Part shown: positions 2,758 through 49,389 of the stretch, in pieces
How the letters are laid out: each line of letters opens with the position of its first letter
How positions within the stretch are numbered: position 1 is the first letter of the stretch
Assembly (NCBI GenBank): GCA_934748015.1
Contig: CAKVHF010000001.1
Span: 188,663 to 252,662 of the forward strand
DNA: 64,000 nt
DNA from: an uncultured Clostridia bacterium
GTDB taxonomy: Bacteria; Bacillota; Clostridia; Christensenellales; UBA1242
Direction of reading: 5' to 3'
The notes under the pieces: model-generated
What the model saw: only the letters and a program-made list of their open reading frames with translations
Told to the model about the DNA's origin: nothing
The model's database searches: none
Position numbers and translations under genes: made by a program

Positions 2758-3831
2758 GTGAAAGAAAAAAATGTAACAGAAGTTAAGTTGAATGAACGAA
2801 AAAGTCAGATACTACTTAATGCTGTCGAGAATTACATAGAGAATGCATCGCCTATAACAAGTGAGCGTGTGCAGACCAACATATTGTCGACACTATCCAG
2901 TGCGACATTGCGTAACGAACTAAATATGTTGGAGGAGATGGGATACTTAAGGCAGTTGTACACTAGTGGTGGTAGAGTTCCTACAACCAAAGCGTATAGA
3001 TATTATGTAGATACAGTTCTTAGCAACGATGCCCTTAATGTAGAGAATATAGCCAAAGTTGAGGAAAAGTTTAAAAAAAGGACATCTAACCTGAAAGATA
3101 TGTTGGATGGCTTGGCTGAAAGGGTGAGCGAGATACTAGAATATCCTACATTTGTTAATCTTACTAGTTACAAGACATTGACCATAGAGGCTGTCAATGT
3201 TATCCCAATTATTACTGGTGAGGCACTGATGTTGATCAAGACCAATGCGGGTATTATCAATAACACAGTCCCACTGAAAGACAATGTGACAGAAGATAAT
3301 TGCAAGGATGCAAGCAAGTTTCTGACAATACACTTGGCTAACAAAAAGATCAATGATGTAATAGAGCATTACAAAGATTATTCGGCATTGTTCCGAAAAG
3401 AATTGGATTATTTCCAAGATCTATTCTTCAATCTTACTTTGGTGTTGAAAGATTTTGCCGCTAACAAGACAAGTTTCAAGCGAGGCAATACCACCAAGTT
3501 GTTAGACAGCCCAGAGTGCAGAGATATTGACTCTGCTAAGAAGTTCTTAAGTGTTATTGAGAACAAAGACGAGATAGTCAAGATTATGGATAATCTAGAC
3601 GATGCCAATTCCAGCGAAGTTGTGTTCTCCATAGGTGATGAGAACAATAGCGAAGAATTGAATGAGTATAGCATAATCAAGGCTAATTATAGTTTGTCTG
3701 ACGGTATTGTGGCAAGCATTGGTGTGGTAGGTCCGGAGCGTATGGATTATGCCAAGATTGCATCGGTGTTGAAATACATTACTGACGAGATAAACGAGGA
3801 TAATAAGAAAGGAGATGAAACAAACAAATAG
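2758..3831 (+). CDS. hrcA: Heat-inducible transcription repressor HrcA
   Basis: GTG start preceded by AAAGGTG. N-terminal winged-helix segment (ERKSQILLNAVENYIENASPITSERV...SSATLRNELNMLEEMGYL). Position upstream of grpE-dnaK-dnaJ and downstream of CIRCE. Confidence 0.9.
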   Translation: MKEKNVTEVKLNERKSQILLNAVENYIENASPITSERVQTNILSTLSSATLRNELNMLEEMGYLRQLYTSGGRVPTTKAYRYYVDTVLSNDALNVENIAKVEEKFKKRTSNLKDMLDGLAERVSEILEYPTFVNLTSYKTLTIEAVNVIPIITGEALMLIKTNAGIINNTVPLKDNVTEDNCKDASKFLTIHLANKKINDVIEHYKDYSALFRKELDYFQDLFFNLTLVLKDFAANKTSFKRGNTTKLLDSPECRDIDSAKKFLSVIENKDEIVKIMDNLDDANSSEVVFSIGDENNSEELNEYSIIKANYSLSDGIVASIGVVGPERMDYAKIASVLKYITDEINEDNKKGDETNK

Positions 3832-3833
3832 CT

Positions 3834-4394
3834 ATGGAAGATAACAAACATAACGAAAAACATCACGAGCATCACAAACATCATGACAATCATGAACACA
3901 AGGAAGAGATCAAAGAAAAAGATCAATGCTGTTGCGGTGAAGCTTGCGAGTGCAAATCTAGCGATAACATCTCTGATAAGGCTACCGAATATCTAGAGTT
4001 AGCCCAAAGGATCAAAGCGGAATTTGATAATTACAAGAAGCGTAACGCAGAGATCACAACCACCAGTTACAATAATGGTATCGCAACTGCGGTGACTAAG
4101 ATTTTGCCTTGTATTGATAGTTTCAATCAAGCCAAGAGCAATATATCCGATCCAGCGGTGCTTAGTGGTGTAGAATTGATATATAACCAACTCATTAAGG
4201 GTCTAAGCGAACTTAATGTAGTTAAGATTGATTGCTTAGGCAAGTTGTTCGATCCCAACTTGCACAATGCAGTACTAGTAGGTAGAGATGATGCTTACCC
4301 AGAGGACACAGTTCTAGAGGAGTATCAAGCGGGCTTTACCTTAAATGGTAAGGTTATCCGACCTAGTACCGTCAAAGTAAATAAATTAGGATAG
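3834..4394 (+). CDS. grpE: Nucleotide exchange factor GrpE with a His/Cys-rich N-terminal extension
   Basis: Lies between hrcA and dnaK. GrpE-like core (YLELAQRIKAEFDNYKKR...FDPNLHNAV...GFTLNGKVIRPSTVKV). The first ~44 aa are HEHHKHHDNHEH...CCCGEACEC. Confidence 0.9.
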   Translation: MEDNKHNEKHHEHHKHHDNHEHKEEIKEKDQCCCGEACECKSSDNISDKATEYLELAQRIKAEFDNYKKRNAEITTTSYNNGIATAVTKILPCIDSFNQAKSNISDPAVLSGVELIYNQLIKGLSELNVVKIDCLGKLFDPNLHNAVLVGRDDAYPEDTVLEEYQAGFTLNGKVIRPSTVKVNKLG

Positions 4395-4423
4395 AAAATA
4401 TAATACATTAAACAAATAATTAA

Positions 4424-6268
<1,845 letters not shown>

Positions 6269-6363
6269 TTAACTAAATAGCGACCATGATAAGCATATCT
6301 AACATGTATTTGCTAGATATGCTTAATGTGGTTGTATACATATATAACAAGGGAAAGTAAAAA

Positions 6364-7530
6364 ATGGCTAATAAACAAAATTATTACGAGACATTGGGTG
6401 TAGACAAGTCGGCTAGTGATGACGAAATCAAATCAGCATATAGAAGAATGGCTAAGAAATATCACCCAGACCTAAACAAAGAAGCTGGTGCTGCTGAGAA
6501 GTTCAAAGAAGTCAACGAGGCTTATGAAGTCTTGTCTGACAAGACCAAAAGAAGCAATTATGACCAATATGGTGATCCTAATGGTGCTAGCAACTTCTTC
6601 CGTGGTGGTTCGTCAAGTGGTGCAGGTGCTGGCGGATTTAGTGGATTTAGCAGTAGTGACTTTGGCGAAGGCTTTAGTTTTGATGATATCTTTAGTATGT
6701 TTGGCGGTGGCGGATTTGGAAGCAGTAGATCCAATCGTGCTAGCAGTGCCGTCAAGGGACAAGATATTCAGGTTCAGATCACTTTGACCCTAAAAGAAGC
6801 TGCTCTGGGTTGCCAAAAAGATATCAATATCACTCGTGTTGACACATGCTCGGCTTGTAATGGCACAGGTGCTAAAGGCGGAACAGATTATACAACTTGT
6901 TCAACTTGTAAAGGTTCTGGTGTAGTTTCATATTCCGAAACAACACTATTTGGTAGAGTTGTAAGACAGGGACTATGTAAAGATTGTAATGGAACAGGTA
7001 AATCCATCCGTAACAAATGTACAGAGTGTGGTGGTGCTGGTGTCAAGAAAGTTAACAAAATTGTTTCAATTAACATCCCTGCAGGTATCGAAAATCATCA
7101 AGTTATAACCGTTCGTGGTTCTGGCAATGCTGGACAAAGGGGCGGAGCAAATGGTGACCTACACATTATTGTATCTATCAAGGAACACAAGTTGTTTGAG
7201 CGTGACGGTTGTGACCTAAGATTGAAAGTCTTTGTTCCATTCTACCTATTGTTACAAGGTGGTGATCTAGAAGTTCCACTTATTGACGGCTTTACTACTC
7301 TTAAGATACCAGAGTTGACACAGTCCAATACAGTATTTAAGATCAAGGGCAAGGGTGTTAAAGTGCTTAATCGTAATACTTATGGTGATCTAATAGTAAC
7401 AGTTGTTGCAGAAAGCCCTAAAACATTAACCAAAGAAGAGAAAAAGTTGCTGGATAGTTTGGCAGAAAAAATTAATCCAAATAGCTTTGCTAGATACAAA
7501 TCATATCTGAAAGATCTAGACAATCTATAA
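6364..7530 (+). CDS. dnaJ: Co-chaperone DnaJ (Hsp40)
   Basis: J-domain with HPD (KKYHPDLN), a G/F-rich region, and four CxxCxGxG zinc-finger repeats ([32 protein letters not shown]). Confidence 0.97.
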
Positions 7531-11019: not shown

Positions 11020-11045
11020 AAGCCAACGCTTGTTGGCTTTTTTGT
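11020..11045 (+). terminator. Intrinsic terminator after the nucleoside hydrolase gene
   Basis: AAGCCAAC-GCTT-GTTGGCTT hairpin plus T-run. Confidence 0.8.
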
Positions 11046-11185: not shown

Positions 11186-11398
11186 ATGCCTAATACAGAC
11201 GGCAAATATTTATGGACAACCAAAGTAACCAGCAAAGGGCAAATTGTTATACCAAAGGAAGCAAGAGAGATATTTCATATTGCAGAAGGTGACACATTGA
11301 TCCTTCTTGGTGATATTGATAGAGGTATTGCGATAGCAAAATATGACGATTATGTTAATTTTGCTAAGCAGATATTTGAGGCTGGTGACAAACATTAA
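11186..11398 (+). CDS. AbrB/MazE/SpoVT-family DNA-binding protein (70 aa)
   Basis: Swapped-hairpin barrel motif VTSKGQIVIPKEAREIFHIAEGDTLILLGD; strong RBS AAGGAGG. Confidence 0.75.
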   Translation: MPNTDGKYLWTTKVTSKGQIVIPKEAREIFHIAEGDTLILLGDIDRGIAIAKYDDYVNFAKQIFEAGDKH

Positions 11399-11410
11399 AC
11401 AAAGGATTAA

Positions 11411-11505
11411 TATTATCGGAAGTCAGAAGAAAGCAGTGCGAAGCAATATTTTCTTATGACTGATGTTTATTCAATCTATGTAACCACAATTTATTGTGGA
11501 TTTGC
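11411..11505 (+). repeat. Structured 95-nt element, tandem copy 1 (upstream of the ABC exporter genes)
   Basis: Conserved 5' TATTATCGGAAGT. Hairpin with 11-nt arms (11422-11432 / 11450-11460) and a 17-nt loop. Conserved 3' CTGATGTTTATTCAATCTATGTAACCACAATTTATTGTGGATTTGC, which includes the CCACAAT-TTA-TTGTGG palindrome. Confidence 0.6.
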
Positions 11506-11558
11506 GTTTAGCAAATTGGTTTGCGAATGCAATGAACAAATCAACATCACATAGATTA

Positions 11559-11653
11559 TATTATCGGAAGTTGTCGGCAAACAGCCCAAAGAGATACTTG
11601 CCAGCAACTGATGTTTTTTCAATCTATGTAACCACAATTTATTGTGAATTTGC
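11559..11653 (+). repeat. Structured 95-nt element, tandem copy 2
   Basis: Same length and same flanks as copy 1, 148 nt downstream. The hairpin arms have different sequence (GTTGTCGGCAA / TTGCCAGCAAC) but the same arm length and the same 17-nt loop length. Confidence 0.6.
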
Positions 11654-11697
11654 AATTATTATAAAAATAAAATATCAATAAAAAAAAGGAAAATAAA

Positions 11698-12408
11698 ATG
11701 CTAGAATTAAAGAATTATTCCAAAATATATCCTAATGGTAAAGTAGGTGCTAAGGATATTACGCTGACGGTTGAAGAGGGAGACATATTTGCATTTATCG
11801 GTCACAATGGTGCGGGCAAAACAACTACTATCAAGAGTATCGTTGGTATCAATGACATAACAAGCGGAGATATTATTATTGATGGACATTCTATCAAGAC
11901 TGAGCCTATTGAGTGCAAAAAGATTATTGCATATATCCCAGACAACCCAGATATATATAAGAGCCTAACAGGTATCCAGTACATTAATATCGTAGCGGAT
12001 TTCTATCATATTAGTGCTAAAGATAGAGAAGAACTGACGCTGAAGTATGCCGATATGTTGGAGATCAAAAATGATCTAAATACACCTATATCCAACTATT
12101 CGCACGGCATGAAGCAGAAGCTGGTGCTTATATCCGCTTTCGTTCATCGTCCAAAATTGATCATCATGGATGAGCCGTTTGTAGGACTTGATCCTAAGGC
12201 AAGTTTTACTATCAAAAATGTTATGAAAGAGTTTGTTAAAGACGGTGGGGCAATATTCTTCTCCACACATGTTCTAGAAGTTGCGGAGAAACTATGTAAC
12301 AAGGTGGCAATAATCAAGAATGGTGAAATAGTAACACAAGGCAATATGAAGGATATCAAAAAAGATGAGTCACTAGAACAAGTCTTTATGGAGACTGCCA
12401 ATGACTGA
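11698..12408 (+). CDS. ABC transporter ATP-binding protein
   Basis: Walker A GHNGAGKTT, ABC signature YSHGMKQKL, Walker B LIIMDEPFVGLD. Confidence 0.92.
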   Translation: MLELKNYSKIYPNGKVGAKDITLTVEEGDIFAFIGHNGAGKTTTIKSIVGINDITSGDIIIDGHSIKTEPIECKKIIAYIPDNPDIYKSLTGIQYINIVADFYHISAKDREELTLKYADMLEIKNDLNTPISNYSHGMKQKLVLISAFVHRPKLIIMDEPFVGLDPKASFTIKNVMKEFVKDGGAIFFSTHVLEVAEKLCNKVAIIKNGEIVTQGNMKDIKKDESLEQVFMETAND

Positions 12409-13972
12409 TCTGAAATTGCTGTTAAAACTTAATTTCTTACGATTTATAGCCGTATTTAAGGGTAAGAAAAAAGAACGATCCAATGTGTCGGCGCTGTGTC
12501 TACTAATATTGGCGGTGCTAGGTGTCCTTGCGTTATACTCAGTGCAATGTACGCTTATGTACAAGGATCTTGCGCCTGTGGGACTAGCCAAAATGTGTAT
12601 GTTCCTAGGGGTAATCATCTCGTTATCGGTCTTGATGATTTTTGCTGTTATGCGTACAACCACCAACAATACTGCTGGTGATACCGACTTTTTGATGACT
12701 TTGCCTATCAAGAAGAGTAGTATTATTGTGTCCAAAGTGCTTAGTACATATCTTATGGATCTAGGACTTACTGCACTTACTCTTGCTCCATATTTGGTTA
12801 ATTATCAGATTTTTACCAGGTTCAATTGGGCAACTACTTTCCTTGGTCTTCTTACAATATTTTTGTTGCCACTGCTTAGTGTAGGGGTGACTTATATAGT
12901 CAACTTCTTGGTTGTAAGACTATTTAACCGAACCAAGTACTCTAAGTTGTTCAAGACATTATTTGCTTTGACAATATATTTGGCAATCATGGTGTTACTG
13001 TACACCAAGACCTTTGCAATGAATGATTCTCTTAACTCTAGCAACATTGAAGATTTCTTTGTTGATAGACCTATATCCAATATGTTCTTGAAATTTGTTA
13101 CTGAGCCTAATTGGATATGTGTCTTAGTTGTGCTTGCTATCACACTTATCCCTGCCACTATTGGCTTAGTTGCTTATTATTACAATTTTGGTAAGAGCTT
13201 TGAGAAATTTGCTAATAAATCAGATGTGTTACATTTTGGTGATGGCAAGAGTACATTTGTCAATCTGCTTAACAAGGAAAAATCTGTGTACTTCAATATT
13301 CCAGCTTATGTCATTAATACAATAATTAGCCCAATAATGATTGTGGCACTAAGTGTCGTTGCATGTATATTTATTAACGATGACTTTTGGATGACAATGC
13401 AGGGGATTGGCTTTAGCAAAGATATGATTATTGGCTGTATTGCTATAATATTTAGTGTATTTAACTCCATGGGTTGTATATCTTGTAGTTCTATTTCGCT
13501 AGAAGGTGGCTCTATGTGGATACTTAAGACTATGCCTGTTAACGAGCGATTAATATTTCTGTCCAAAATTGCGTTTCATATAGTTATTCAGTTGCCAGCA
13601 GTGATTGTGGCATCAACCTTGCTTACAATCATTTTGCATTTATCTGCATTACAAACGGCAATCATTTATGCTGTTCCAATATTATTTGTTGTTTTACTTA
13701 GTCTGCTTGGGTTGGTTATCAATTTATGGCTACCTAAGTTCGAGTGGGATAACGAGACACAAGTGGTTAAGTCTAGTATGGCTGTGTTAATGGTTATGGT
13801 GTTTGGCTTGATCATCTCTATCATTCCAATCTTGCTATTTAAGTTCCTTACTGCATTATCTATTCTCAATATCTTTTTGATAACTATAGGACTATATCTA
13901 GCACTTATTGTATTCTTGCTCGTATTCCTTATGACACAGGGTGTTAAGATATTCCGCAAGTTAAATGTGTAA
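12401..13972 (+). CDS. Polytopic ABC exporter permease (523 aa, at least 10 predicted TM helices)
   Basis: Overlaps the ATPase stop by 8 nt (translational coupling). Hydrophobic helices run throughout. No specific family motif recognised. Confidence 0.65.
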   Translation: MTDLKLLLKLNFLRFIAVFKGKKKERSNVSALCLLILAVLGVLALYSVQCTLMYKDLAPVGLAKMCMFLGVIISLSVLMIFAVMRTTTNNTAGDTDFLMTLPIKKSSIIVSKVLSTYLMDLGLTALTLAPYLVNYQIFTRFNWATTFLGLLTIFLLPLLSVGVTYIVNFLVVRLFNRTKYSKLFKTLFALTIYLAIMVLLYTKTFAMNDSLNSSNIEDFFVDRPISNMFLKFVTEPNWICVLVVLAITLIPATIGLVAYYYNFGKSFEKFANKSDVLHFGDGKSTFVNLLNKEKSVYFNIPAYVINTIISPIMIVALSVVACIFINDDFWMTMQGIGFSKDMIIGCIAIIFSVFNSMGCISCSSISLEGGSMWILKTMPVNERLIFLSKIAFHIVIQLPAVIVASTLLTIILHLSALQTAIIYAVPILFVVLLSLLGLVINLWLPKFEWDNETQVVKSSMAVLMVMVFGLIISIIPILLFKFLTALSILNIFLITIGLYLALIVFLLVFLMTQGVKIFRKLNV

Positions 13973-14516: not shown

Positions 14517-16670
14517 ATGACGAAAAATAGAAAAATGTTGGCATTGGCTATCGCACTGGTTATTATGTTAGTAACCGTCAGTGGCACACTTATTGCAGTG
14601 CTAGTTGCTAGTAACCAGAGTGCCCAGTCCAAGGTGCATGTTAAGTACACTAGCAGTGATGTCAATGTCAAGGTTGAGGCAAAATACTATGTCGGATCAA
14701 CTGGTACAGACATGGTAGACAAGAGCAATAGCAATGCAAAATCAATAGAACTGGATGCTAATAAGACTTCAGGTTCACTTGATCAACTTGCATCTGAGGT
14801 CTCACTAAGCAAAACTAATAGCAAAATAATTTATGAATATAAGTTTACTAACTTATCTACAACTATCCCAGCCACTATTGGTCAGTTGGTTGAAAATGGC
14901 AGTGTAGTTGTTCCAAAAGATAGCAATAACAATGTGAAACTAACATATACATCATCGTCATCATCACTAGGTGCTGGAGCAAGCAGTGATGCTACAACTC
15001 TTAACACCCAAGGTCTTCCAGCAGGAACAACAAGATATGTCTATGTTATTGTGTCTATTGTAGAATTACTTAACGATGTAGACTTCGAGGGTACATTTGG
15101 CTGGGATCTAGCAAAAGGTGAGGCTATTACATCCAATACAACTGGAGGAAGCCAATCTATCGTTGTAGACACCACAGACGTGAAATTGTATAACAAATCT
15201 GCTATGGAGAATATACAATTGGTAGTAGGAGTAGAGAACACCGAACCTGACTACCCAATGATAGAAGATAAATGCTTTACAGGGTGGTATTCCGATTCTG
15301 GCCTTAACAATAAGGTAGAATTTCCAATCATCCCAACCGCCGATACTATACTATATCCTAAGCACGAGACAGCGACAAGCGACCTGACATATATGTACGA
15401 GTCAGAATCTTATGCTGTAGGCGATGACACCTTTGGGTATCAGGGCTCAGAGACAGATATTGTTATTCCTGATGTATATGATGATGGAACAAATGGATTA
15501 CATCCTGTTACAAGGATATCATGGTGTGCTTTTGAGTTTGAAGAAGCGTCCGATATGGTTCAAGTAGACATAAATAGTATCTACATGCCTAACACTATAA
15601 CGGAAATAGGCGAGATGGCTTTTTATGAATGCAGAATATCAAGTATTTTCATTCCGTCCAGTGTAACCATTTTACAGTATACTGCAATTAGTACTTGTCC
15701 AAACTTAACTAATATAGAAGTAGACAGTAATAATGCAACATATCGTAGTGAAAGTAATTGTATAATAGATAGGGCTACTAATGAGTTGGTATATGGCTGT
15801 GTTAACTCTAATATACCAGAAAGTGTCACTAGTATAGGATCTTCTGCCTTTTCTGATTGCAGTGGCTTAACAAGTATAACCATTGGATCAGGTGTCACCA
15901 GTATAGGGGATTCTGCCTTTTCTGGATGCAGTGGCTTAACAAGTATAATAATTCCAGATAGTGTAACTAGTATAAGTGATTCTGCCTTTTCTGGATGCAG
16001 TGGCTTAACAAGTATAACAATTTCCAATAGTGTCACTAGTATAGGATCTTATGCCTTTGATGGATGCAGTGGCTTAACAAGTATAACAGTATCTAGTGGT
16101 AACACAGTATATCGCAGTGAAGGAAATTGTATAATAGAGAAATCCTCTAATACATTAATACTAGGTTGTAAAAATTCAATTATTCCTAGCGGTGTCATCA
16201 GTATAGGGATGAATGCCTTTTTTGATTGCAGTGGCTTAACAAGTATAACAATTCCAGATAGTGTAACCAGTATAGGGGAGAATGTCTTTCGAAATTGCAG
16301 TGGCTTAACAAGTATAACCATTGGATCAGGTGTCACCAGTATAGGGATAAGTGCTTTTTCTTATTGTAGTGGCTTAACAAGTATAACAATTCCAGATAGT
16401 GTCACCAGTATAGAATACTCTGCCTTTTCTGATTGCAGTGGCTTAACAAGTATAACTATAGGTAGCGGAGTGAAACACATAGGAAACAACGCATTTAGCA
16501 ATTGTTCAAAACTAACTAGTGCAACTTTTAAGAATACAACCGGCTGGACTGTAACCACCTCTAGCACAGCAACGACTGGTACAGCAGTAACAATATCAAC
16601 AACTGATCTTGCTGCCAATGCGACACTATTGAAAACTACACATGTAAGTAAGTATTGGAACAGAGCATAG
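14517..16670 (+). CDS. Membrane-anchored surface protein, paralog 2 (717 aa; N-domain + Listeria/Bacteroides-type repeat + long BspA-type LRR array)
   Basis: RBS AAGGAG. Signal anchor MTKNRKMLALAIALVIMLVTVSGTLIAVLVA. Contains CFTGWYSD...LYPK. About 9 near-identical 23-aa LRR units (SVTSIGxSAFSxCSGLTSITI). C-terminal tail NATLLKTTHVSKYWNRA. Confidence 0.85.
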   Translation: MTKNRKMLALAIALVIMLVTVSGTLIAVLVASNQSAQSKVHVKYTSSDVNVKVEAKYYVGSTGTDMVDKSNSNAKSIELDANKTSGSLDQLASEVSLSKTNSKIIYEYKFTNLSTTIPATIGQLVENGSVVVPKDSNNNVKLTYTSSSSSLGAGASSDATTLNTQGLPAGTTRYVYVIVSIVELLNDVDFEGTFGWDLAKGEAITSNTTGGSQSIVVDTTDVKLYNKSAMENIQLVVGVENTEPDYPMIEDKCFTGWYSDSGLNNKVEFPIIPTADTILYPKHETATSDLTYMYESESYAVGDDTFGYQGSETDIVIPDVYDDGTNGLHPVTRISWCAFEFEEASDMVQVDINSIYMPNTITEIGEMAFYECRISSIFIPSSVTILQYTAISTCPNLTNIEVDSNNATYRSESNCIIDRATNELVYGCVNSNIPESVTSIGSSAFSDCSGLTSITIGSGVTSIGDSAFSGCSGLTSIIIPDSVTSISDSAFSGCSGLTSITISNSVTSIGSYAFDGCSGLTSITVSSGNTVYRSEGNCIIEKSSNTLILGCKNSIIPSGVISIGMNAFFDCSGLTSITIPDSVTSIGENVFRNCSGLTSITIGSGVTSIGISAFSYCSGLTSITIPDSVTSIEYSAFSDCSGLTSITIGSGVKHIGNNAFSNCSKLTSATFKNTTGWTVTTSSTATTGTAVTISTTDLAANATLLKTTHVSKYWNRA
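15822..16530 (+). repeat. Intragenic tandem 69-nt (23-aa LRR) repeats, near-identical at the DNA level
   Basis: The core tgcagtggcttaacaagtataac recurs about every 69 nt in two blocks (about 15822-16097 and about 16190-16530). Confidence 0.85.
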
Positions 16671-35334: not shown

Positions 35335-36954
35335 ATGACAAAAAGTAAAAAAATGTTAGCCTTAGTCATTGCATTAGTTGTTATGTTGGTTGCAGTCAGT
35401 GGTACACTTATTGCAGTACTGGTTGCTGGCAACCAGAGTGCCCAGTCTAAGGTACATGTTAAGTACACTAGTAGTGATGTCAATGTTAAGGTAGAGGCTA
35501 AATACTATGTTGGATCAACTGGTACAGACATGGTAGACAAGAGCAATAGCAATGCAAAATCTATAGAACTGGATGCTAATAAGACATCAGGTTCACTTGA
35601 TCAACCCGCATCTGAGGTCTCACTAAGCAAAACTAATAATAAAATAATATACGAATATAAGTTTACTAACTTATCCACAACCATCCCAGCCACTATCGGT
35701 CAGTTAGTTGAGAATGGCAGTGTTGTTGTGCCAAAAGATAGCAATAACAATGTGCATCTAACATACACATCATCATCATCCGCACTAGGTTTAGGAGCAA
35801 CTAGTGACGCAACTACACTTAACACGCAAGGTCTTCCAGCAGGAACAACAAGATATGTATATGTTATTGTATCTATTGTAGAACTACTTAATAATGTAGA
35901 CTTTGAGGGCACATTTGGCTGGGATCTAGCAAAAGGTACTACTGCTAGCCTAGATACAACAGGTAGCGGAAATAGTATCGTTAATGTTAACACATCTCAG
36001 ACAGGTTTCTACAACGCAGCATCACTACAAAATATAGACCTTATGGTAGGTGTAGAGAACCAAGAACCAGATATCTATCCAATGATAGCTAACAAATGCT
36101 TTACAGGTTGGTACACCAATTCTGCACTTACAACCAAAGCAGTCTTCCCTATGGTAGTTACTGCGGATACTAAGTTGTATCCAAAAAATGAAACTGCCAC
36201 GAGTGGGTTGGTTTATGGGTATAGTGCCTCATCACAAACATATCACATAGGTGATGGAAGTTCATCTTTTGCAGGAACTGCAACAGAAATTATAATTCCA
36301 GACATGTTTGATGATGGCACTAATGGATTAAAAGAAGTAAAAAGTGTTTATCCAGAGGCTTTTAGTGGTTGTGTGAATATATCAGAAGTTGTTTTTCCTA
36401 AGAATTTAGTAGCTATTGGTAGATACGCATTTGACGGATGTTCAAGTTTAACAAGCATTAATCTTCCAAAAGGGTTGATAGAACTTAATCGCTATGCGTT
36501 TAAAGATTGCAATAATGTAAAAAGTATAATAATTGAAAGCGAAAATCTTATGACATTTGATAATAGTGTTTTTTATAATTGTAGTAAGAGTTTAGTCAGT
36601 ATCAAAGTAACATCTAGCAGTTTATATCTAAGATCTGAAGGAAACTGCTTAATAGATACAAGGTATAATATACTGCTTATAGGATGTCGAAATTCAGTTA
36701 TACCTAATTATATAACAGATATTGCACCATGGGCATTTTACAATTGTAAACAATTATCAAATATTAATATACCTGTAAGTGTAGAGTATATTGGCAATGA
36801 AGCATTTTATGGTTGTGACAATTTAACTAGTGTTGTATTTGATGATACAATTGGTTGGAAATCTGGAGGGACGAGTATTGACATTTCTAAAGTAGATTAT
36901 ACTGCGAACGCATTGTTATTAAGAACTGCAGATGGTTCATTTTCTAAATCATAA
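35335..36954 (+). CDS. Membrane-anchored surface protein, paralog 4 (539 aa)
   Basis: RBS GAGGAG. The first ~200 codons are nearly identical in DNA to paralog 2 (MTKSKKMLALVIALVVMLVAVSGTLIAVLVAGNQSAQSKVHVKYTSSDVNVKVEAKYYVGSTGTDMVDKSNSNAKSIELD...). Contains CFTGWYTN...LYPK and divergent LRR units. Lacks the KYWNRA tail. Confidence 0.85.
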   Translation: MTKSKKMLALVIALVVMLVAVSGTLIAVLVAGNQSAQSKVHVKYTSSDVNVKVEAKYYVGSTGTDMVDKSNSNAKSIELDANKTSGSLDQPASEVSLSKTNNKIIYEYKFTNLSTTIPATIGQLVENGSVVVPKDSNNNVHLTYTSSSSALGLGATSDATTLNTQGLPAGTTRYVYVIVSIVELLNNVDFEGTFGWDLAKGTTASLDTTGSGNSIVNVNTSQTGFYNAASLQNIDLMVGVENQEPDIYPMIANKCFTGWYTNSALTTKAVFPMVVTADTKLYPKNETATSGLVYGYSASSQTYHIGDGSSSFAGTATEIIIPDMFDDGTNGLKEVKSVYPEAFSGCVNISEVVFPKNLVAIGRYAFDGCSSLTSINLPKGLIELNRYAFKDCNNVKSIIIESENLMTFDNSVFYNCSKSLVSIKVTSSSLYLRSEGNCLIDTRYNILLIGCRNSVIPNYITDIAPWAFYNCKQLSNINIPVSVEYIGNEAFYGCDNLTSVVFDDTIGWKSGGTSIDISKVDYTANALLLRTADGSFSKS

Positions 36955-47313: not shown

Positions 47314-49389
47314 ATGATAACAAAAAACAGAAAAATGCTAGCGTTGATAATTGCATTGGTTATAACATTGGTTTCGGTCAGTGGGACTCTTATTGCAGTA
47401 TTGGTTATCAGCAACCAGAGTGCACAATCAACAGTTCATGTTAAATATACCAGTACTGATGTTAACGTAAGAGTAGAAGCTAAGTATTATGTAGGTACGA
47501 CAGGTACAGACATGGTAGACAAGAGCAATAGCAATGCAAAATATCTAGATTTAGATGCTAATAAAACATCAGGTTCTCTTGATCAACCATCTAACGAAGC
47601 GGTCGAGCTAAGCAAAACTAATAACAAAATAATCTATGAATACAAGTTCACCAACTTATCTACAACTATCCCAGCAACTATAGGTCAGCTGGTCGAAAAT
47701 GGCAATGTTGTTGTTCCAAAAGACAGCAATAACAATGTAAAACTAACATATACATCGTCTTCAACATCCCTAGGTTCAGGAGCAACTAGTGACGCAACTA
47801 CACTTAATACCCAAGGACTTCCTGCAGGTACAACAAGATATGTCTATGTTATTGTGTCTATTGTAGAACTACTTAATGATGTAGATTTTTCTGGCAGTTT
47901 TGGTTGGGATCTAGCGAAAGGTGAGGCTATTACATCCAATACAACTGCAGGTAGTCAATCTATCGTTGTAGACACCACAGACGTGAAATTGTATAACAAA
48001 TCTGCTATGGAGAATATACAATTGGTCGTAGGAGTAGAGAACACCGAGCCGGACTACCCAATGATAGAAGACAAATGTTTTACTGGTTGGTATACTGATG
48101 AAAGTTTAGAAACTAAAGCAGTTTTTCCATTAACTCCAACTGCTGAAACCAAATTGTATCCTAAGTATGAAACAGCAACAAGTGATCTTACTTATGTGTA
48201 TAATGAAGCATCACAAAGCTATTTTGTTGGGGATGGAACTACATCATATTCCGGGTCGACAAAAAATATTGTTATTCCTGATACATATAACAATGGAACC
48301 AATGGATTACATGCGGTAACATGTATTAACGATTGTGCGTTTTTAAAAACTAGTATTATTAGTGGTATTGTAATTCCAGGTTCTGTTAGTAATATAAGTA
48401 TAGGAGATAATAGGGCATTGAAAGGCGGCATAACTACAGTGTCTGTATCTTCGGCTAATCCTGTATATAAGAGTGAGAATACATGTATAGTACGCAAGGC
48501 TGATAATTGCTTAATATACGGAGGCCAGAAATATGATATACCAAAATATGTAACATCAATATATGATTATGCATGTTTTGGTTCATATGCTACAACAATT
48601 GCATTAAGAGAAGGTGTTGTTAGTATTGGAAGGCATGCTTTTTATAATAATAAGTTTGCTGAGCTTATTATTCCATCTAGTGTTGTCAATATTGATGAAT
48701 TGGCATTCTCTTCTTGTATGCACTTAAAAAGGGTTACTTTTAAAGAAGGCTTACTTAGTATAGGAAAAGAGGCATTTAGAGGCTGTGTTTCTCTAACAAG
48801 TGTTACAATTCCGAGCACAGTAACCAGTTTGGATCGTCTAGCTTTTATTAATTGTACAGCATTAAATTCTTTTTGGGTTTCAGATAATAACAAAGTGTAT
48901 AAGGGTGAAAGTAATTGTGTAATGTTAAGAGCAGAACCTACTGTTTTGTATTGTTGTTTTGCAAATGGTACTATTCCTGCCTATATAACTAAAATAGGTG
49001 ATTATGCATTTTACTATAATACGGCACGTGGCTCGCTTCATATACCAAAATCTGTAACGGAAATAGGTGTTAGTGCTTTTGAATCTTCTTCAATTAAGGG
49101 TAGCGTCGTTATACCAGATAGTGTAATTACTATTGGAAATTCTGCTTTTAAAAGCTGTAACATAACAAGTGTGACAATTGGTAATGGCGTTAAAAGTATA
49201 GGGGTAAACGCTTTTTATTATTGTGGTAACTTAACAAATATTACATTCAATACAATAACTGGCTGGACTGTCACAAATGACAGTAGCGCAACCACTGGAG
49301 ATCCAGTTACCGTGTCAAAATCTGATACAAAAGCTAATGCGACACTACTAAGAACAACACATGCAAGTAAATATTGGCACAGGGCATAG
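47314..49389 (+). CDS. Membrane-anchored surface protein, paralog 5 (691 aa)
   Basis: Signal anchor MITKNRKMLALIIALVITLVSVSGTLIAVLVI, the family N-domain, CFTGWYTD...LYPK, a divergent BspA-type LRR array, and the tail ANATLLRTTHASKYWHRA. Confidence 0.85.
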   Translation: MITKNRKMLALIIALVITLVSVSGTLIAVLVISNQSAQSTVHVKYTSTDVNVRVEAKYYVGTTGTDMVDKSNSNAKYLDLDANKTSGSLDQPSNEAVELSKTNNKIIYEYKFTNLSTTIPATIGQLVENGNVVVPKDSNNNVKLTYTSSSTSLGSGATSDATTLNTQGLPAGTTRYVYVIVSIVELLNDVDFSGSFGWDLAKGEAITSNTTAGSQSIVVDTTDVKLYNKSAMENIQLVVGVENTEPDYPMIEDKCFTGWYTDESLETKAVFPLTPTAETKLYPKYETATSDLTYVYNEASQSYFVGDGTTSYSGSTKNIVIPDTYNNGTNGLHAVTCINDCAFLKTSIISGIVIPGSVSNISIGDNRALKGGITTVSVSSANPVYKSENTCIVRKADNCLIYGGQKYDIPKYVTSIYDYACFGSYATTIALREGVVSIGRHAFYNNKFAELIIPSSVVNIDELAFSSCMHLKRVTFKEGLLSIGKEAFRGCVSLTSVTIPSTVTSLDRLAFINCTALNSFWVSDNNKVYKGESNCVMLRAEPTVLYCCFANGTIPAYITKIGDYAFYYNTARGSLHIPKSVTEIGVSAFESSSIKGSVVIPDSVITIGNSAFKSCNITSVTIGNGVKSIGVNAFYYCGNLTNITFNTITGWTVTNDSSATTGDPVTVSKSDTKANATLLRTTHASKYWHRA

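Follow-up and report, generated by a model that had tools for sequence, protein, structure and literature searches.

We identified, in a 64,000-nt stretch of DNA from an uncultured Clostridia bacterium (assembly GCA_934748015.1, contig CAKVHF010000001.1, positions 188,663 to 252,662; hereafter the window, to which unqualified coordinates refer), two structured units lying head to tail between an abrB-like gene and the genes of an ABC exporter. These units are probably two adjacent copies, one complete and one without its 3' third, of a dispersed, non-coding, and non-autonomous mobile repeat of approximately 150 nt. A preliminary description of the region had proposed that they form either a tandem leader RNA for the exporter or paired binding sites for the AbrB-like protein, and the evidence presented here argues against both proposals.

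The arrangement as such was confirmed: two units, a 148-nt period, shared 5' and 3' blocks, and in each unit a 39-nt hairpin with 11-nt arms, a 17-nt loop, and 10 of 11 positions paired. The 5' block, TATTATCGGAAGT (13 nt), occurs exactly at 11411-11423 and 11559-11571; a 27-nt core of the 3' block has two exact occurrences, where shuffled sequences predict none; and a repeat search returned a direct repeat of 101 nt with a spacing of 148 nt and 77% identity. The arm sequences of the two units are nearly unrelated. The arms of unit 1, GTCAGAAGAAA/TTTCTTATGAC (11422-11432 and 11450-11460), carry a G.A mismatch at position 5, and those of unit 2, GTTGTCGGCAA/TTGCCAGCAAC (11570-11580 and 11598-11608), have a C.A mismatch at position 6 next to a T.G wobble at position 5. 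Two details require correction. The true repeat unit is not 95 but 148 nt long (11412-11559), the 53-nt "spacer" between the reported units being part of unit 1; unit 2, for its part, is truncated at the 3' side, and its homology to the family stops near 11656. Moreover, the palindrome described for both units is perfect in unit 1 only, as the copy in unit 2 (CCACAAT-TTA-TTGTGA) ends in TTGTGA.

A dispersed repeat family in gut Clostridia

A first profile, built from the two units of the window, matched a locus in a Clostridia metagenome-assembled genome (MAG; locus L044), 3' of a 574-aa open reading frame (ORF) that we take, on inspection only, to be argS. A strict two-block pattern scan of metagenome contigs yielded 48 loci with 51 exact matches, and a family profile identified 70 copies across these 48 loci, L044, and the window, with unit lengths of 145-168 nt and with uncultured gut Clostridia MAGs as hosts. 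Both window units match the family profile in nhmmer searches, unit 1 with E=5e-33 over profile positions 2-154 and unit 2 with E=3e-17 over positions 2-102 only. In a single assembly (ERZ808286), 17 copies are distributed over 12 contigs whose coverage is 4.2-5.9x throughout, which indicates many copies within one genome. The element also stands at the start or end of many contigs.

Nearly all copies are intergenic (65 of 70, ~93%), and their orientation relative to neighbouring genes is random: 20 copies share the orientation of the downstream gene and 26 oppose it, while for the upstream gene the split is 27 to 27. A comparison of neighbouring proteins revealed no protein family that repeatedly adjoins copies.

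Searches for related sequences in other collections returned nothing of the kind. The strict pattern had 0 matches in viral contigs, a looser two-block pattern matched only phage coding sequences there, which we regard as noise, and blastn against phages and plasmids gave no match to the element. A literature search with the 5' block sequence recovered unrelated primers only. The scan against Rfam 15 that the preliminary description had called for found no match to the units in the window (E<=10) and none in nine family loci (E<=1), in line with its remark that the motif was not recognized. That description had also named a known repeat or insertion sequence (IS) remnant among the findings that would overturn its interpretation; a dispersed repeat comes to this in spirit.

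Side observations at individual loci include a 355-aa GTPase ORF (L121 6780-7882; HflX-like by sequence inspection) that ends within an inverted repeat remnant, which supplies its last codons and stop codon, with a left-end remnant upstream of the same gene. In addition, Rfam identified tRNA genes (L110 16-197 and L136 124-196) several hundred to ~2,000 nt from copies, with no evident link to the element.

Extra DNA in the abrB-ABC operon and variation among strains

A permease-based scan of species-representative genomes identified 54 related loci, 8 of which also have an abrB-like gene. The insert is missing from all eight of these orthologous abrB-ABC operons (L023, L028-L031, L038, L040, and L065), which have the same gene order and in which only ~10-50 nt separate the abrB stop from the ATPase start. 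The final 29 nt of the spacer in the window (11669-11697) can be aligned over the full 31 nt between abrB and the ATPase gene in L031, AAAATATAATAGTAAAAAAGGAAGATAAAAT, and therefore the sequence from ~11412 to ~11656 constitutes extra DNA. This would correspond to an insertion into a former spacer of ~30-45 nt inside the abrB-ABC exporter operon.

The locus is also variable within the species. Among same-species strains, represented by contigs encoding an identical AbrB or ATPase protein, the spacer is either 299 nt long (two units) or ~150 nt long (one unit). In one of the two-unit strains (L003), the hairpin of unit 2 has a third sequence, and a more diverged strain (L012) has a single unit with arms of the unit 2 type, another loop, and a compensatory change in the palindrome. 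That unit number varies while the ATPase protein stays identical speaks against a regulatory role that is essential. For the one-unit alleles, the simplest explanation would be recombination between the shared blocks.

Several short-read contigs (L004-L007, L013, and L015-L017) break inside the repeat region, near window positions 11440-11625, which fits a repeated or within-sample polymorphic site. In a further contig (L014 1-391; Logan contig ERR7745867_33889), 308 nt that match neither the window nor any fetched locus abut the unit 2 3' block exactly at TTTTTCAATCTATG, and a hairpin, AAAGTCGTC-N24-GACGACTTT, lies just before the joint. This contig represents either a rearranged strain or a chimera.

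Organization of the locus

The features of the two units and of their host operon are as follows.

11407..11411, +: pentamer TTAAT in the left flank, directly 5' of unit 1, varying from the TTTAT-like motif
11412..11559, +: unit 1, complete 148-nt copy, ATTATCGGAAGT to CACATAGATTAT
11417..11465, +: P1, long hairpin of unit 1, with base CGGAAGU/ACUGAUG, variable upper stem, and G.A mismatch
11466..11474, +: joint TTTATTCAA, conserved and single-stranded (family consensus KTTATTCAA)
11475..11555, +: four-way junction of unit 1, with closing helix P2 enclosing hairpins HP2, HP3, and HP4
11484-11499, +: HP2 of unit 1, the palindrome of the preliminary description
11500-11516, +: HP3 of unit 1, ATTTGC-GTTTA-GCAAAT
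11517-11543, +: HP4 of unit 1, TGGTTTG...CAAATCA
11555..11559, +: terminal pentamer ATTAT (family consensus TTTAT), with the head-to-tail junction ...TAGATTAT / ATTATCGG...
11560..11656, +: unit 2, 3'-truncated; retained are the 5' block, P1, joint, P2 in its 5' half, and HP2 as a remnant
11669..11697, +: what is left of the short ancestral intergenic region, including the ABC ATPase gene's ribosome-binding site (AAAATATCAATAAAAAAAAGGAAAATAAA)
11186..13972, +: host operon, listed for context and outside the element
11186-11398, +: abrB-like gene, AbrB/MazE-domain protein of 70 aa
11698-12408, +: ABC ATPase gene
12401-13972, +: permease gene, 523 aa
11097-11125: promoter-like site upstream of abrB
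11020-11039: terminator of the gene upstream of abrB

In unit 1, the upper stem of P1 (11422-11432 with 11450-11460) is capped by a UGC-GAA-GCA tip, and P2 is formed by TCTATGT (11475-11481) pairing with ACATAGA (11549-11555). Folded as RNA, this unit reaches -37.9 kcal/mol (z=-3.8), and none of 200 shuffles is as stable. Unit 2 has a P1 (11565-11613) of a hairpin lineage other than that of unit 1, and its HP2 remnant (11632-11647) reads CCACAATTTATTGTGA; with HP3, HP4, and the 3' end lost, its predicted RNA is no more stable than shuffled sequences (z=-0.8).

We consider it very unlikely that the units act as a tandem cis-regulatory RNA in the exporter 5' untranslated region (UTR) or as paired AbrB operators. 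Such a role would suit sense-oriented units of conserved structure placed between the abrB and ABC genes, as well as two weak signals in this interval: a promoter-like site over the junction of units 1 and 2 (11533-11562, +; TGAACA-N18-TATATT), and a terminator-like site, the only one called between abrB and ABC, which is the weak 6-bp stem of HP2 in unit 1. However, a leader RNA is hard to reconcile with its absence from eight of eight orthologous operons, with approximately 70 copies in other places beside unrelated genes and in both orientations, with the differences in unit number and hairpin among strains whose ATPase protein is identical, and with the lack of an Rfam match. The palindrome had been singled out as an obvious target of the AbrB-like protein, but its stem takes at least 10 different sequences across the family, and so it is not a conserved AbrB operator.

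As mobile repeats, the units probably travel in the operon messenger RNA, in sense orientation and as a stable structure, because they are oriented with the genes, no strong terminator is predicted, and the genes are contiguous in relatives. If exporter expression is affected at all, this would be a by-product. A promoter-like arrangement similar to that at the unit junction recurs at the 3' end of copies ending in ...ATGAACAAAGCAACATCACATAGTTTAT, and the repeat might carry an outward-reading promoter.

A conserved fold with variable helices

Across the family, a TTTAT-like pentamer precedes the 5' end ATTATCGGAAGT, followed by P1, the joint KTTATTCAA(ACT), the P2 helix enclosing HP2, HP3, and HP4, and the 3' end ATAGTTTAT. 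The base of P1, CGGAAGU/ACUGAUG, is invariant and comprises C-G, G.U, tandem G.A/A.G, A-U, G-C, and U-A, while the upper part of P1 exists in a few discrete versions, either of ~38 nt with a C-GAA-G tip or of ~31 nt with a tetraloop. The unpaired joints ATTATCGGAAGT, ACTGATGKTTATTCAA, and TAGTTTAT are invariant, and in an alignment of 42 members the joint columns are invariant or nearly so. At least three subfamilies can be distinguished, and hairpin types and 3' domain types mix freely.

Type A: P2 is GUGAUG/CAUCAC
Type B: P2 is GGAAGU/ACUUCC, hence inverted-repeat-like ends
Type C: ACTCAAGGAAGT and ACTGACGCCGAATCAAAACT replace the usual blocks

The preliminary description had argued from the two hairpins that the structure is under selection, and the family supports this. 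Covariation was tested on a plain MAFFT alignment of the 42 members with the structure of one member (L127). In this alignment 81.8% of helix cells are paired, against 68.4% in column shuffles, a level attained by 0 of 500 shuffles; sliding the partners by 1-3 columns lowers pairing to 36-51%. Changes on both sides were found in 31 of 41 pairs, and covariation scores 0.378, compared with 0.164 for shuffles. Folding the 3' domain of each copy individually gave a closing stem and three hairpins in 35 of 42 cases. In a structure-anchored alignment, which itself leans towards the structure, P2, HP2, HP3, and HP4 are 95-99% paired, all pairs being compensatory. RNAalifold on the raw MAFFT alignment recovered P1 and HP3 only, because the subtypes are misaligned, and per-sequence folds together with the reference-derived structure were used for this reason.

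These data also bear on the possibility that the units are genes or processed segments of a multicopy structured non-coding RNA, whether an omega-RNA-type guide scaffold borne by ORF-less IS200/IS605 derivatives, an RNA decoy, or a new ribozyme, whose spread is secondary to its RNA function. We regard this as unlikely, even though P1 and the four other helices covary strongly while the unpaired joints remain invariant. The + strand is richer in G.U pairs and has the lower folding energy in 39 of 42 copies, the tandem G.A/A.G at the base of P1 is typical of RNA, and ORF-less IS200/IS605 derivatives often encode omega-RNAs (Meers et al.). Conversely, both strands fold well (z=-3.8 to -5.7), solitary copies have no conserved promoter upstream (their flanks are unrelated) and no 3' terminator, and with random orientation to neighbouring genes, read-through would give a sense transcript of only about half of the copies. 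Furthermore, the Rfam models without a match include IS605-associated and ribozyme models, and a search for the C-terminal zinc-ribbon motif found no tnpB-like ORF in the examined contigs.

A similarly doubtful proposal is that the element represents a new structured-RNA class riding on a TTTAT-targeting mobile unit, either as a trans guide-RNA scaffold for a TnpB/IscB-type nuclease or as a self-processing RNA. If so, the invariant joints and the covarying four-way junction would reflect selection on the RNA, arrays may yield unit-length transcripts, and the same logic might explain the bcr1 repeats of Bacillus.

Several known classes were considered and rejected. A hammerhead-like core (CUGAUG) lacks the GAAA/helix arrangement and an Rfam match, the arm and loop sizes do not fit a tRNA-like element, and the period and architecture are wrong for CRISPR-like or type III antitoxin repeats.

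Origin of the two different hairpins

The difference between the two hairpins of the window, which had been read as arms rewritten in place with their geometry preserved, is better understood from copies elsewhere. The hairpin of unit 1 shares 95% identity with that of L129, and the hairpin of unit 2 shares 95% with that of L109, these being unrelated contigs, whereas between the two window hairpins identity is only 50%. The units are therefore two pre-existing repeat lineages placed side by side rather than products of compensatory evolution in place, and hairpin geometry is kept because the whole family keeps it.

The same comparison leaves next to no probability for a local tandem duplication followed by drift, without selection or a wider family. 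Such an event would yield neighbouring units with near-identical blocks at a 148-nt period, but not hairpins that each match a distant contig far better than one another, and the dozens of family members elsewhere refute it. In addition, arrays at other loci join unrelated subtypes, with type A beside B in L116 and type C beside B and A in L106. The exact junction ...TAGTTTAT / ATTATCGG... recurs in the arrays of L106, L116, L128, L137, L142, L143, L144, and L148.

Target motif and proposed spread

The ends of the copies point to a preferred insertion site. Most copies end 3' in (G)TTTAT, and 54 left flanks, of which ~12 are the end of an upstream copy, are dominated by T at -5 (35), T at -4 (45), T at -3 (41), A at -2 (49), and T at -1 (47). 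TTTAT itself ends 22 of the 54 left flanks, against a background of 1.1%, and the pattern [TA]T[TA]AT is matched by 34. The left pentamer often deviates where the right pentamer remains TTTAT. Inverted ends of 10-12 nt are present in type B and absent from types A and C; with inverted ends confined to one subtype and no consistent target duplication, the family does not fit the classical definition of a MITE (miniature inverted-repeat transposable element).

We hypothesize that the element inserts site-specifically just 3' of a TTTAT-like pentamer by means of an enzyme provided in trans, for which the best candidate would be a single-strand (HUH) transposase of the IS200/IS605 type. Because each copy itself finishes with TTTAT, its 3' end would offer a new target, and this would account for the exact head-to-tail arrays of mixed subtypes.

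A number of observations weigh against a mobile repeat of this kind. Neither the window nor ~380 kb of element-bearing contigs yielded a transposase; a search for an autonomous parent, in which left-end and right-end profiles would flank an ORF, found none; and a tnpA probe of approximate sequence had no match in the window or the fetched contigs. Left and right pentamers do not co-vary, so that a strict 5-nt target duplication is unsupported, and no locus provides a clean empty site with both flanks matched. Relative to the majority coding strand, 8 copies have the same and 14 the opposite orientation (p=0.29; a small sample and a rough proxy). P1 at the 5' end and HP4 with the junction at the 3' end are unlike in sequence and shape, and the 64-kb window holds this one locus only. 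Lastly, the strong covariation in four internal helices exceeds what a transposase should need, which hints at an RNA-level function.

At one pair of orthologous loci, a truncated element (L126 6417-6509) corresponds to an unrelated AT-rich stretch of 55 nt (L111 1559-1619), a difference that is a replacement rather than simple presence or absence. This pair was the sole candidate to emerge when both flanks were matched across all loci in search of empty sites.

Wider context of the window

The rest of the window has the appearance of ordinary chromosomal housekeeping DNA, with 91% of the coding sequence on the + strand. Four + strand ORFs at 2758-7530 resemble an hrcA-grpE-dnaK-dnaJ heat-shock operon, as judged from N-terminal sequences only. 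Four paralogous genes for large surface-type proteins (863-2359, 14517-16670, 35335-36954, and 47314-49389) share near-identical N-terminal signal/anchor segments (M.K..KMLAL.IALV..LV.VSGTLIAVLV..NQSAQS.V), and an orthologue of the gene at 14517 has LRR_5 repeats.

Implications and comparison with known systems

The identification of these units as a repeat removes a tempting false lead, in that the exporter has no dedicated riboswitch or AbrB operator here. It also adds a previously unlisted structured repeat family of uncultured human-gut Clostridia, one that breaks assemblies, varies in copy number among strains, and enters operons. Given its unusually strong covariation, an RNA-level function is a reasonable possibility for the family.

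Integron attC sites share with the element a structure that is kept while stem sequences are free, conserved mismatches within stems, and an occurrence in arrays. However, the RYYYAAC/GTTRRRY core sites of attC are absent, and the hairpin described here starts with GTT and ends with AAC, the reverse order. Cassettes and an integrase are likewise lacking, and the copies are scattered singly and in both orientations; an assignment to attC was rejected for the wrong orientation of the core.

The pneumococcal BOX and RUP elements, the Correia/nemis elements of Neisseria, and the enterobacterial ERIC sequences are likewise small, non-coding, multicopy, and intergenic, and may be co-transcribed with neighbouring genes (PMC3184786). 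BOX is moreover modular, comparable to the mixed hairpin and 3' domain types found here (PMC3184786). These families mostly have long terminal inverted repeats with TA or other short duplications, or consist of modules without a defined junction fold, whereas in the present family inverted-repeat-like ends (ATTATCGGAAGT with ACTTCCGATAGT) occur in one subtype and the four-way junction is conserved.

One of the two closest parallels lies with IS200/IS605 elements and their ORF-less derivatives (PATEs). In Geobacillus, IS200/IS605 elements use a TTTAT transposon-adjacent motif, have a similar right-end pentamer, insert without duplicating the target, and are accompanied by ORF-less derivatives (10.1101/2023.03.14.532601). 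PATEs (e.g. the Geobacillus ISGst relatives) resemble our element in their TTTAT-like left flank and similar right-end pentamer, in the apparent lack of long terminal inverted repeats and of a convincing target duplication, in hairpins near the ends with one preferred strand, and in being ORF-less, multicopy, and open to mobilization in trans. Conversely, no cognate tnpA or tnpB was found in the window or the fetched contigs, and the left and right hairpins are dissimilar with freely variable stems, unlike the similar ends of classic IS200/IS605 elements. The replication-linked orientation bias reported for IS200/IS605 is not seen, and the element is only ~150 nt long and without a match among the IS605-associated RNA models of Rfam. 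Because two defining features are not found, we do not classify it as a proven IS200/IS605 derivative.

The other is with the group A Bacillus cereus repeats bcr1-bcr3, which are also non-coding and multicopy, ~150-155 nt long, and located in intergenic regions, UTRs, and operon spacers of Firmicutes. The bcr1 repeat of the Bacillus cereus group is ~155 bp long, flanked by TTTAT, and transcribed, with a fold kept by compensatory changes and an unknown means of mobilization (PMC3184786, PMC6199540, PMC6542083). Both elements have TTTAT at each end, although an exact duplication is unsupported here; both have a stable predicted fold with compensatory changes; and neither has a known transposase, both being called MITE-like (PMC3184786, PMC6199540, PMC6542083, PMC3446304). 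They differ in host, as bcr1 is described as confined to the B. cereus group and our copies come from uncultured gut Clostridia, and in shape, as bcr1 is cruciform-like with two stem-loops and the element described here combines a long hairpin with a four-way junction. A blastn search (word size 11) with one family member against PLSDB, whose entries include plasmids of B. cereus that reportedly carry bcr1, gave no match. We do not assign the element to bcr1 because no similarity was detected (an indirect comparison, made through PLSDB) and because the host is a different one.

As a small, structured, non-autonomous intergenic repeat with TTTAT ends, the element is thus of a kind already known, while the family, its host group, and its four-way-junction fold appear undescribed. 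More generally, the TTTAT ends tie this family both to bcr1, whose mobility is unexplained, and to TTTAT-targeting IS200/IS605 elements, and suggest a common mechanism that is open to test.

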